From IMG/VR virus record IMGVR_UViG_2671180417_000020: a stretch of 3,146 bases of DNA, one strand, 5' to 3'. Source of the stretch: a virus. Taxonomy: Duplodnaviria > Heunggongvirae > Uroviricota > Caudoviricetes. The stretch's first letter is position 1; each line of letters starts with the position of its first letter. The position numbers were made by a program. This document shows positions 1 to 3,000 of this stretch, one piece after another.

Positions 1-3000
1 CCGATTGACGAAAAGCTTATGGCGCTTCACAAGTGGTTTTGGGAACAAAGTGAAGCCGAGCGCGCCGCTGGCATTCGCATCAAAGGAGAGTGAGATGAAC
101 GGACAAATCTCAATTGTTCGACCGGGAGCATGTGACGATTGCGAGATACGAATGATTATTCGTCTGGCGAGGGGGAAAACAATAACTGCTCTCATTACTC
201 CAGAAAATCTCGCATTAGCATTAACCGGAAAGTCAGACCTGCCAGTAGAGCTAAAGCTGCGAAATGTTGAGATTAAGGTGAGTATCAGCAATGAATAACA
301 ATCCTCGCATTGGCGGGGATTTCTTTTATCTGAAAAGGACAGAATACATGATTAACAATATTGCAAATCAGTCTTCGTTTCCGGCTGCAACAATTGACAG
401 CCAGATGCTGTTGAAAATGGTTAATGAGGCGCGGAGACTGCGAGGCGAAAAAGAAGTACGCAACAACGACTTCATTGCACGCATCAAAGATGAGCTTGAG
501 GGGGAGGGTTACGAAATTTTCGTAACCCCCATGGATAAGAAAAAAGGCGGAGCGGATCAGGTGGTTATAGTGATGACCTACAAGCAAGCCCTGCGCGTCG
601 CCGCACGTGAGTCGAAAGCCGTCCGTCGTTCGCTGGTCGACAAACTTGAATCAATGCAACAGCAGTTGCAACAAAAAACGACCACGAAGAAATCACCGGA
701 TGGCCTTGAAGAATTCCGTAAGGCACGCGCATTGAAAATGACCGTCGACACAATGAAAGACCTCTTCGACTTCCTCCCTCACCTCGCACCGGAAGCTAAA
801 CAGGTCGTTGCCGCCAGCCTGATTAATCCCGTCGTCGGCTTTAGTGCAATCCCTCTTCCGGTCATTGATGAACATCACTACTCTGCGTCGGAGGTTGGCA
901 CCATGCTTGGCATTTCAGCCAACAAGGTAGGGCGCATTGCCAACACCTACATGCTCAAAACAGAAAAGTACGGGAAGTGGTTCATCGACAAATCGGCGCA
1001 CAGTGACAAGCAGGTCGAGACATTTCGCTACAACGAGGCGGGAGTGCACAAGATCGAGGAACTCATCGAAGGAGAACGAAAGGCTGCATGATTTTGACAA
1101 GATAGTTTTCCCCAAATCTGGGGGGAAAAGACCGAATGGCGCGGCTTACAGCAAGATAAAGACCACATGATTTGACAAATCCGCATTAACGGGGCTATAT
1201 TCCGCTTCATGGTGCTGAACACACCTTGCAAAGCGGAAACCGCACCCGTCAGTCATGCGGCTTTTTTATGTCCATTTCTCAGATATGGTCGGGTAGCGCG
1301 TATACCGAAAAACAACCGAAAGGTTAAGGATACGGGCCGACTTTGCACGGTGTTCAAGTACCTGACCGCCCTGCTGAACACAGGGCTATCTGAACAAATG
1401 CAAAGGACATAAAAATGACCAGTCAACTCATCCCCGTATTCAACGGCACTATCGCCAACGAAACAGCCCTACTCTGCAATGCCCGCGATCTGCATGCTTT
1501 TTTAGGCGTGAAAAAGGTGTTTGCGGCATGGATTACAAATCGCATTTCAGAATACGAATTCATTGAAAATCAAGACTATATTTTGCTTTCCAATTTGGGA
1601 AAGCAAACATCTGGTAGAGGCGGTCACAACCGCAAGGATTACCACCTCACCCTCGACACAGCCAAAGAACTGGCGATGGTGGAGCACAACGAAAAAGGCC
1701 GCCAGATACGCCGATACTTCATCGAGTGCGAAAAGAAACTTCGCCAGAGCCTTTTACCTGCACCAATGAACATCAACTACCCCCTCTCGTGGTTCTCAGA
1801 TAACCATCCCTACGCCACGATGAACTATGTTGATCGCAAGGTTATCAGCCTTGATGCTTCCGTGCTCTTCGATATGCCAAGCCCAACTATGCGCATCCTC
1901 AACGAGCTACACAGCAAGGGCTATAACGTCGACGCAGCTGTCGCTGAATTTAACGCCTTCAAACATCTGACGGAAGAAATGCGCCGCACGCTACAGGATA
2001 TTTCAAGACTGTCAGATCGAAATTCCCGAAAAGGCTTCTCGTTAAGTCTTTAAAGAACAGATCGTTTGACAATGCCTCCAAAGCTATCGCATACTGACCG
2101 CACTACAACGTCAGCGGTCAACCGCACCCGATAGCTTTGCGGCTTTTTTATGCCTGTTTACAGGTATCGCCATATCAATGGCGGGTCGAGAGAGCCTAAT
2201 ACAATACCCTTTCGGGAAATACGCTCCGCCGTCTGACGCGGTAGTTGAAGCCCGCCACCCCACTAAGGTGGCAGTCAATACTAAAACGTCAGGAGTCATA
2301 ATTATGGCTAATCAACTCATCCCCGTATTCAACGGCACTATCGCCAACGAAACCACTCTTCTCGTTAATGCTCGCGATTTACATACTTTTCTTGGGGTAG
2401 GTAAACGCTTTGCATCGTGGATTACAGAACGCATTGCTGAATATGGTTTCGTTGAAAATCAGGACTATATTTTGGTTTCCCTAAATCGGGAAACCAAAGG
2501 TCGAGGAGGCGATCGCCGTAGCAAAGACTATCACCTCACCCTCGATACAGCCAAAGAAACTGCGATGGTTGAACGTAACGAAAAAGGCCGCCAGATCCGC
2601 CGATACTTCATCGAGTGCGAAAAGAAACTTCGCAACATTCAGCCAGTACAAACTGAGCAGCAATTCACAGCCGAGGAAATCATCCTCCTTTGCTATATGC
2701 AGGTACAGATGGAGAATGCGCAGGACATCTGCAAACGTCTGTACCCGATATTGAAGGAACTTAACTCATCATACGCGAGTAAACTGTATGACATTGCGTT
2801 TGAAACCTTCTATGCGGTGACGAAAAACAGAGACGCATTGCTCAGGGAGGCAACACGAATTGACCAGACAAGCGCCATTTTCGAACGGGCAAGACCAATG
2901 TTAAAAAGCCTTCGGGCGAGACAATTCGAATTTTAATATCAAAGGAGCTTCGGCTCCTTTTTTTACAGGTGAAACTTAATGAAATTCAAAGTCACAGGTG

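Follow-up and report, generated by a model that had tools for sequence, protein, structure and literature searches.

The stretch of DNA analysed here (the window, 3146 nt) comes from the Caudoviricetes virus record IMGVR_UViG_2671180417_000020. It is 95–96% identical to the early-left region of Shiga toxin (Stx)-converting and related lambdoid prophages, and this region is flanked by ead/Ea22-type genes on one side and by xis/int on the other. Three genes of the window carry an anti-repressor annotation. The product of the first gene (348–1091) has no Pfam match. The second, ant1 (1415–2053, + strand), encodes an antirepressor of the AntA domain family, and the third, ant2 (2304–2936, + strand, ATG at 2304), encodes an antirepressor with AntA and P22_AR_C domains. 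Antirepressors can flip prophages from dormancy to lytic growth, and the induction of Stx phages drives toxin production. The heptamer CTGAACA is repeated in front of ant1, and a preliminary description of this DNA had taken it for the loop of a recognised RNA hairpin. Two full leader/element/target modules were found in tandem, one at 1172–1417 before ant1 (unit 1) and the other at 2066–2306 before ant2 (unit 2). The CTGAACA copies are very probably the 'a' target boxes of an antisense control module of the c4/IsrK class that precedes ant1.

The repeated heptamer

The heptamer CTGAACA occurs exactly three times in the window, always on the + strand (1215–1221, 1374–1380 and 1390–1396). As the preliminary description held, two of the copies are the loops of hairpins with different stems (1211–1225 and 1368–1386). 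Hairpin A, GGTG-CTGAACA-CACC (1211–1225), is a weak fold (−3.9 kcal/mol, z −1.9). Hairpin B had been given the stem CCCTG/CAGGG and placed 30 nt upstream of the ribosome-binding site. The hairpin exists, but its stem has 6 bp (GCCCUG/CAGGGC, 1368–1373 with 1381–1386) and its 7-nt loop is exactly CUGAACA (−10.7 kcal/mol, z −3.0); the real gap to the Shine–Dalgarno sequence AAGGA (1403–1407) is 16 nt. The repeat shared by the first two copies is real and is longer than the 10-mer first given, namely the 11-mer TGCTGAACACA (starting at 1213 and 1372). The third copy lies outside any hairpin, directly before the ribosome-binding site as had been noticed, and 2 nt upstream of a second box (b2) that overlaps the Shine–Dalgarno sequence. 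The complement GTGTTCA (1350–1356) is the exact complement of TGAACAC at 1216–1222 and 1375–1381. A LexA box in the CTG...CAG of hairpin B was rejected by eye, as the spacing is 7 and not 10.

Three copies had been judged too many for chance. This argument is post hoc, because the estimate behind it is valid only for a 7-mer named beforehand. In dinucleotide shuffling of the whole window, 561 of 2000 shuffles (28%) contain some 7-mer in three or more copies within 190 nt, and shuffling of the 323-nt intergenic region alone gives 25 of 2000 (1.25%). Thus, the CTGAACA count is only mildly unusual, and the case for function rests on comparative evidence and not on copy number. The copies could also be repeats at the DNA level, either operator half-sites for a repressor of the ant1 promoter or a functionless relic of local duplication. 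All copies are direct and on one strand, two of them are 16 bp apart (1374 and 1390), and a triple 7-mer in a 3.1-kb window is not rare by chance, as the whole-window shuffles show. Every copy, however, is located downstream of the promoter and inside the transcript, and the comparative results described below make this explanation hardly credible.

Leader and structured RNA in front of ant1

Unit 1 begins with a promoter-like site, TTGACA-18-TATATT (1172–1201, + strand), which has 11 of 12 consensus matches and whose −35/−10 layout is retained in homologous units. Judged from the sequence, transcription would start near 1208–1209. The putative short leader RNA (1209–1267, + strand, about 58 nt) contains hairpin A, the boxes a1 and b1, a GCGG-AAA-CCGC mini-hairpin, a terminator hairpin and a U tract. 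This leader aligns with the a1b1 leader of phage P1, and its position is that of isrK in homologous loci. Hairpin A (+ strand) displays box a1 (CTGAACAC, 1215–1222, + strand) in its loop; a1 contains the first heptamer copy, and its TGAACAC is complementary to box a′ of the structured RNA. In other classes of the module, the stem of hairpin A is replaced by 4-bp equivalents (GAGG/CCTC, CCGG/CCGG). Box b1 (TGCAAAG, 1227–1233, + strand) follows. The leader terminator (1240–1267, + strand) has a CCGCA...TGCGG stem, an 11-nt loop and a U6 tract, and competes with the pairing between GCGG (1233–1236) and CCGC (1240–1243). Phage P1 has the same terminator element, and the stems of different classes differ compensatorily (TCGCA/TGCGA, CCAAC/GTTGG).

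The structured RNA is an 85-nt, tRNA-like element of the sRNA-Xcc1 type (1287–1371, + strand), with a closing stem P1, a long hairpin P2, a hairpin P3, a junction and a GCCC tail. The Rfam model RF02221 matches 1287–1375 with 69.3 bits against a threshold of 53, and the position of the element is that of C4 in homologous loci. It has a tRNA-like closing stem with a GCCC/ACCC tail, and its aligned 'TATGG' start is common to the c4 RNA of phage P1; these features would fit a 5′ end made by RNase P. Box b′ (CTTTGCA, 1341–1347, + strand) is located in the loop of hairpin P3 and is antisense to b1 and b2. Box a′ (GTGTTCA, 1350–1356, + strand) comprises the 3′ side of P3 and the following junction, and is antisense to each of the three CTGAACA copies. 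Hairpin B (1368–1386, + strand) takes its 5′ strand from the 3′ tail of the element and holds box a2 (CTGAACA, 1374–1380) as its loop. Further downstream, box a3 (CTGAACA, 1390–1396, + strand) forms a single 16-nt target with box b2 (TGCAAAG, 1399–1405, + strand), and b2 overlaps the Shine–Dalgarno sequence of ant1, its end lying 9 nt upstream of the ATG.

The heptamer thus makes up one half of a bipartite target. The leader version reads CTGAACAC-ACCT-TGCAAAG and the ribosome-site version CTGAACA-AA-TGCAAAG, and both are antisense to CTTTGCA-CG-GTGTTCA of the element. The arrangement is that of the P1/P7 c4 type: the element (1287–1371) stands on the same strand between the leader (1209–1267) and ant1, its a′/b′ boxes are complementary to a3/b2 (1390–1405) on the Shine–Dalgarno sequence, and a1/b1 duplicate this target in the leader. 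The preliminary description had proposed that the complement could pair with any CTGAACA copy, giving a leader-to-untranslated-region interaction near the ribosome-binding site. This proposal is supported and was understated. The pairing is bipartite (a and b boxes), it extends with the leader to 25 bp in a 30-nt stretch, it lies inside an Rfam sRNA-Xcc1 element, and it follows the architecture of P1 c4 and Gifsy-1 IsrK. That description had overlooked a second box (TGCAAAG/CTTTGCA) and the presence of a structured RNA, as well as the equivalent module before ant2.

Covariation in related loci

We collected 137 loci with homologues of the Ant N-terminal domain, and 60 representatives were scanned with Rfam. 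About 40–140 nt before the start codon, homologous ant loci carry either isrK (RF01394) followed by C4 (RF01695), or sRNA-Xcc1 alone. The common position of both arrangements indicates that sRNA-Xcc1 takes the place of C4 and that the leader of the window takes the place of isrK. In one viral contig (L053), an isrK+C4 module (355–542) and an sRNA-Xcc1 module (1372–1460) stand in tandem; thus, both structural types coexist in one prophage.

Box words were compared in 41 non-identical units, of which 28 are of the sRNA-Xcc1 type and 13 of the C4 type. In 40 of these 41 units, a word of at least 6 nt is common to the leader and the downstream/ribosome region, and its reverse complement is found in the element. 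The complements have constant positions within the element, those of b in the P3 loop and those of a in the junction after it. Cognate combinations have a mean summed word length of 11.2 nt, and combinations with the element of a different unit have 1.1 nt. The different b words number about 27, and each has its match at all three sites. For most of the 36 tabulated units, b2 ends 7–11 nt before the ATG, on the Shine–Dalgarno sequence; the exceptions range from 1 to 25 nt, with three where the ATG is misplaced in the locus. Because the units share ancestry, cell counts make independent events look more numerous than they are, and counting distinct box words is the better guide.

Pairs were counted column by column after aligning 11 units of the class to which the window belongs. 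Pairing in the leader:element helices amounts to 91.4%, 7 of the 14 pairs change on both sides (for box b1, 5 of 7), and none of 500 shuffles reaches the covariation score, whereas slid controls are 24–47% paired. For the helices between element and ribosome site, the paired fraction is 88.5%, with two-sided changes in 7 of 13 pairs. The outer pair of hairpin B alternates between AU and GC. The stem of hairpin A is invariant within the class, and hence uninformative. The heptamer itself covaries. In one related locus (L086), the leader box reads CTCAACA, both downstream copies (hairpin-B loop and ahead of the ribosome site) read TCAACA, and the element carries the matching GTGTTGA; in another (L090), CTGAAAA goes with TTTTCAG. 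Other classes show TCGAAA/TTTCGA or CTCAAAA/TTTTGAG.

According to these complementarities, the three-way covariation, the correspondence with the P1 layout and the interchangeability of sRNA-Xcc1 with isrK+C4, the predicted pairings of the element with the leader and of the element with the ribosome site are well supported. A search of homologous regions, as the preliminary description had suggested, shows loop-displayed boxes in all classes. Its idea of a recognised RNA hairpin was right in form, since the boxes are displayed in loops in every class including phage P1, and wrong as to the recogniser in so far as some factor was implied. The change of a loop in a relative is accompanied by a change in the complementary segment, which points to an RNA and not to a protein.

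The same results bear on two other explanations. If the CTGAACA loops were bound by a phage or host RNA-binding protein that controls ant1, identical 7-nt loops on non-identical stems (1211–1225 and 1368–1386) would be understandable, and a 7-nt loop is likewise present in the corresponding hairpin of unit 2. A protein site, however, would not require that a loop change (L086, L090) be matched by a third, unpaired segment of the element. The third copy is not in a hairpin, and the loop sequences are wholly different between classes while the architecture is kept. Gene calls and a domain scan gave no candidate RNA-binding gene in the window. We regard such protein recognition as very improbable. 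As for repeats at the DNA level, neither operators nor relics predict an inverted complement and a second box that covary through about 27 specificities, and the layout is superimposable on the annotated RNA sites of phage P1.

Predicted pairing energies and proposed mechanism

The duplex between the leader (1208–1237) and the element (1336–1365) of unit 1 has 25 bp and a predicted energy of −32.1 kcal/mol, and the equivalent duplex of unit 2 has −23.1 kcal/mol. The two non-cognate leader:element pairs have −13.2 and −19.3 kcal/mol. By cofolding, the binding energy of the element is −13.5 kcal/mol with the leader and −6.8 kcal/mol with the ant1 untranslated region, and that of the unit 2 element with the ant1 untranslated region is negligible (−0.6 kcal/mol). 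This rank order agrees with the proposed competition among leader, element and untranslated region. In an all-against-all RNAduplex calculation with 36 units, the mean energies of cognate and non-cognate pairs are −31.4 and −24.3 kcal/mol for the leader, and −19.0 and −12.8 kcal/mol for the ribosome site. Thermodynamic predictions of this kind are only suggestive, and the box-word test and the column-wise pair counts were used in place of the RNAduplex energies as evidence of covariation.

We propose the following mechanism. The strong promoter at 1172–1201 would give a short leader that contains a1 and b1 and ends at the weak intrinsic terminator (1240–1267). Read-through transcripts would contain the 85-nt structured element, then hairpin B with a2, and then a3 and b2 on the Shine–Dalgarno sequence. 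The element would probably be released as a stable small RNA, with a presumed RNase P-type processing and with predicted transcript ends and stability. Its b′/a′ boxes would pair with b2/a3, cover the ribosome site and keep the translation of the antirepressor off; by analogy with the known systems, the net effect on the ribosome site would be repression. The leader, whose complementarity is longer (25 bp), would compete for b′/a′, in cis in read-through transcripts and in trans as the terminated short RNA, and may thus be an activator as IsrK is. The ratio of leader to element would then set the expression of ant1, which is the gene that unit 1 would regulate. The module before ant2 would be independent, and its different box sequences predict separate control.

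Several observations weigh against this mechanism. The Rfam models of C4 (RF01695) and isrK (RF01394) have no match in the window (E ≤ 1) or in the 226-nt segment 1195–1420 (E ≤ 10), and the same search does find C4 upstream of homologous ant genes. Homology with C4, as opposed to analogy, therefore rests on the layout and on the alignment with the P1 leader. For a short RNA in the style of IsrK, the promoter-like site and the terminator stem with U6 are present and align with phage P1, but the terminator hairpin is predicted to be weak (−5.8 kcal/mol with the 11-nt loop) and was missed by the terminator scan. The gain from element:ribosome-site pairing is modest (the −6.8 kcal/mol given above), and pairing of a′ needs partial opening of P3. 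The fold predicted for the whole read-through RNA has the leader:element helix formed and the ribosome site open, and the equivalent fold in Gifsy-1 is the silent one. The energy matrix is noisy, the cognate partner being ranked first in only 10 of 36 cases for the leader and 7 of 36 for the ribosome site; the conserved G+C-rich stems dominate these energies, hence the few cognate first ranks. In unit 2 and a few other classes, the a box has only 4–5 nt. Finally, the a2 copy in hairpin B is not needed to occlude the ribosome site. A 13-bit c4-2 match on 1200–1240 (E = 7.5) was set aside as noise.

The competition within the terminator offers a different output. The free element could bind a1-b1-GCGG of the nascent leader and free CCGC, so that the terminator forms and read-through is shut off, as with the CI RNA of phage P4 and its seqA/seqC. 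The best fold of the 60-nt leader uses GCGG (1233–1236) with CCGC (1240–1243) and not the terminator stem, the leader:element duplex reaches into GCGG, and the arrangement GCGG-N3-4-CCGCA is common to phage P1. The authors of the IsrK study consider such attenuation possible in the case of STnc1160 and mention P4 SeqA as structurally homologous to IsrK (PMC4825925). However, in units of the L044 type, the terminator stem is CCAAC/GTTGG and the upstream GCG/CGC hairpin has no overlap with it; the switch therefore does not hold for every class. Covariation can lend no support to the GCGG/CCGC pairing, both sets of columns being invariant in the class alignment, and the location of b2 on the Shine–Dalgarno sequence in most tabulated units points to translation as the target. 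Attenuation is therefore unlikely in our judgement, though it keeps an appreciable chance, and any effect on termination would be a prediction from these folds. Outputs on termination and on translation are not mutually exclusive.

For the c4-type control of translation proposed here, the terminator tail may provide an additional lock. The tail TTTTTATGTCC (RNA UUUUUAUGUCC, 1263–1273, + strand) is complementary to GGACATAAAAA (RNA GGACAUAAAAA) at 1405–1415, from the Shine–Dalgarno sequence to the start codon. Within the class, pairing across this 11-nt perfect inverted repeat reaches 94.5%; one pair is compensatory and three vary on one side only. Other classes lack the repeat. The helix between the tail and the ant1 Shine–Dalgarno sequence may act in cis on translation in read-through transcripts.

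Other features of unit 1 were observed. The terminator loop contains CACCCG (1244–1249), which is conserved across classes and is complementary to CGGGT in the 5′ strand of the element closing stem (1290–1295); the same complementarity is present in unit 2 (2126–2131 and 2182–2187). CACCCG thus mimics the 3′ strand of that stem, and an alternative pairing in the precursor is possible. An outer stem of 7–8 bp encloses a1/b1 (1200–1207 with 1231–1238; in unit 2, 2095–2101 with 2114–2120). Its 5′ strand is located between the −10 hexamer and the predicted start, so this stem could form only in transcripts derived from upstream, e.g. by early-left read-through. No upstream frame like orf45 is coupled to ant1, and the ATG at 1285, at the start of the element, opens a frame of 3 codons. 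A 67-codon frame (1209–1412) opens with an ATG where the transcript is predicted to start and stops 3 nt short of the ant1 ATG, which is probably coincidental. Leaderless translation of this frame from ATG 1209 was considered and rejected, as that ATG is absent in locus L087.

The module in front of ant2 and flanking sequences

Unit 2 repeats the architecture of unit 1 with other boxes. The promoter scan gives a promoter-like site, TTGACA-18-CATACT, at 2066–2095 (+ strand). The putative leader (2102–2150, + strand) contains a1 (ACTAC, 2102–2106), b1 (CGTCAG, 2109–2114) and a terminator (CCGCA/TGCGG and a T run, 2122–2149). The sRNA-Xcc1-type element (2180–2260, + strand) contains b′ (CTGACG, 2233–2238) and a′ (GTAGT, 2241–2245), and the Rfam RF02221 match at 2180–2264 scores 53.0 bits, exactly at the threshold of 53. 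The equivalent of hairpin B (2254–2272, + strand) has the stem GCCACC/GGTGGC and the 7-nt loop CCACTAA (−10.8 kcal/mol, z −3.5). The ribosome-site target (2280–2295, + strand) comprises a3 (ACTA, 2280–2283), b2 (CGTCAG, 2287–2292) and the Shine–Dalgarno sequence GGAG (2292–2295). The direct repeat AACGTCAG occurs twice, and the complement CTGACG is inside the element. As the b boxes differ (TGCAAAG in unit 1, CGTCAG in unit 2) and the a boxes differ too, ant1 and ant2 are predicted to be separately controlled, with ant2 as the gene regulated by unit 2. If each gene is gated by its own c4-like RNA, the boxes offer concrete mutable sites for studying silencing and firing.

In unit 2, an 11-nt inverted repeat, CAAAGCTATCG (2079–2089) and CGATAGCTTTG (2129–2139), connects the promoter spacer with the terminator loop; its counterpart in unit 1 has 6 nt (1181 and 1255). 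The ATG at 2178, at the first base pair of the unit 2 element, is in frame with ant2 (2178–2936), which is probably coincidental. An N-terminal extension of ant2 from this ATG was rejected as a conserved feature, as the same frame in L093 stops after 14 codons.

Outside the two modules, a further TTGACA is located at 1094, downstream of the first anti-repressor gene, and the hairpin TTTTCCCC-AAATCTGG-GGGGAAAA follows at 1106–1129, which the scan lists as terminator-like on the minus strand. A terminator-like hairpin with a T run (300–330) stands just 5′ of the first anti-repressor gene (start 348). The hairpin GGAGC-TTCG-GCTCC with T7 (2941–2963) stands immediately 3′ of ant2. The window contains no AntQ-type gene.

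Distribution beyond AntA genes

Viral contigs were scanned with the conserved P2 core of sRNA-Xcc1 alone, which gave 92 distinct elements. The leader/loop/ribosome-site rule is obeyed by 78 of the 92 cores, as compared with 169 of 911 non-cognate combinations. The N-terminal domains of 67 downstream genes were scanned, giving KilA-N (15), Bro-N (13), AntA (11), P22_AR_N (9), pRha (9) and ORF6N (5). All six domain families are of the antirepressor type. In two E. coli chromosomes (L263 and L264), a module 89–91% identical to window positions 1165–1420 precedes a gene of the BRO family and not of AntA, and stands after an ORF6N gene. The L264 module has a new b box, ATACAAG, which is matched in all three places. 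The leader/element module looks like a mobile cassette. The features listed under the module match in 126 complete E. coli genomes include no noncoding RNA. In Xylella fastidiosa Temecula1, five sRNA-Xcc1 copies are located about 380 nt apart in a genomic island, and in strain De Donno sRNA-Xcc1 adjoins an isrK+C4 pair (PMC12189769).

These results lead us to a wider proposal, which we hold tentatively and at somewhat less than an even chance. The whole sRNA-Xcc1 family may be a second structural lineage of c4-type immunity RNAs, made of self-contained cassettes (leader, antisense RNA and ribosome-site target) in which the hypervariable P3 loop would encode the specificity for a single gene of the antirepressor type (AntA, KilA-N, Bro-N, P22_AR_N, Rha or ORF6N). 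If so, tandem cassettes with different codes would make antirepressors independently addressable in co-resident lambdoid/Stx prophages, and this could shape prophage cross-induction and hence the release of Shiga toxin. Independently of this proposal, the present result suggests reading matches to sRNA-Xcc1 beside phage genes as c4-type antisense regulators of a downstream antirepressor-like gene, and not as free-standing trans-acting small RNAs. The many natural box variants are in effect a library of orthogonal RNA–RNA specificities.

Comparison with known systems

The c4 immunity system immI of phages P1 and P7 was reportedly described by Citron & Schuster in 1990, and its Rfam entries are C4 (RF01695) and the c4-a1b1 motif. 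The P1 record annotates a1, b1, a 77-nt c4 RNA, a2 and b2, in the same order as in the window and with similar spacing. In the P1 sequence, a1 and a2 are both TTGACAG, b1/b2 are GTTAGTG, and b2 ends 10 nt before the icd start codon. In P1 c4, b′ (CACTAAC) is located in a hairpin loop and is followed by a′ (CTGTCAA) in the junction, and a2 occupies the loop of a hairpin to which the 3′ tail of c4 contributes the 5′ strand. After b1, GCGG-ACAA-CCGCA...TGCGG-TATTTTTGTGTCC of P1 aligns with GCGG-AAA-CCGCA...TGCGG-CTTTTTTATGTCC of the window. By blocking the ant operon's ribosome site, the c4 RNA of P1/P7 stops antirepressor synthesis (PMC12197685). Thus, P1 and the window share a promoter, a1, b1, a terminator-like segment, a structured RNA, an a2 hairpin and b2 on a ribosome site before an antirepressor operon, with boxes of 7–8 nt, b2 ending about 10 nt before the start codon and a CCA-like 3′ tail. 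In contrast to P1, the RNA of the window matches the sRNA-Xcc1 model and not C4, its b2 is on the ribosome site of ant1 itself whereas that of P1 is on the site of the upstream icd, and a further a copy (a3) adjoins b2. The window also has no annotated C1-type operator, and its two tandem modules belong to a lambdoid (Stx-type) prophage.

In Gifsy-1, a helix of about 30 nt between the middle of IsrK and a downstream region silences the read-through mRNA, and the short IsrK, a terminated RNA from a constitutive promoter, activates this mRNA in trans (PMC4825925). A stable processed RNA, STnc1160, is located downstream of IsrK (Hershko-Shalev et al., 2016; PMC4825925). This is the position where Rfam places C4 in the isrK-bearing loci scanned here. 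The window resembles the IsrK/STnc1160/anrP system in a predicted short promoter-proximal RNA with predicted read-through into the mRNA of an antirepressor-like gene, and in a long helix between the short RNA and a downstream structured region (25 bp here; compare helix b-I of IsrK). In addition, homologues of ant1 carry isrK+C4 at this position. Unlike IsrK, the leader of the window is shorter, has no IsrK 5′ hairpin and fails the isrK model; the window has no orf45-like frame, and the ribosome site of the antirepressor itself is complementary to the element.

The sRNA-Xcc1 family (RF02221) is known in Xanthomonas campestris as an integron-encoded trans-acting small RNA under HrpG/HrpX control. 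An 89-nt RF02221 RNA is abundant and poorly covered by ribosomes in E. coli O157 EDL933 (PMC5331693). The NC_002655 coordinates that the paper gives for this RNA fall on a hok/sok locus when applied to NZ_CP008957, and the first 12 kb of phage 933W contain no sRNA-Xcc1 element. Both elements of the window reach the curated family score. In contrast to the trans-acting, virulence-linked RNA of the literature, they are cis-encoded and c4-like, with their own target copies on both sides. The Xylella paper gives sRNA-Xcc1 and the C4 antisense RNA as separate rows of an annotation table (PMC12189769), and an APSE preprint describes sRNA-Xcc1 only as an additional small RNA, without a link to C4. 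The c4 role of RF02221 and its link to six antirepressor-type families are apparently unstated in the openly searchable (non-subscription) literature. The antirepressor paper on phi24B (PMC3064807) concerns a different ant gene near pR′ and has nothing on this module.

According to the part of PMC4825925 that treats phage P4, the CI RNA is processed from an untranslated leader and pairs upstream and downstream in the same transcript. The window resembles the P4 CI/seqA-seqB-seqC system, and the CA RNA of N15, in having a putative small RNA with complementary sequences on both sides. The P4 pairing leads to premature termination, whereas b2 on the Shine–Dalgarno sequence of the window points to translation. 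The class of mechanism is already known, from c4 of P1/P7 since 1990 and from IsrK since 2016, and the present result is an insight at the level of annotation rather than a new mechanism. What is new here is a member of this class in an Stx-type lambdoid prophage, built on the sRNA-Xcc1 scaffold.

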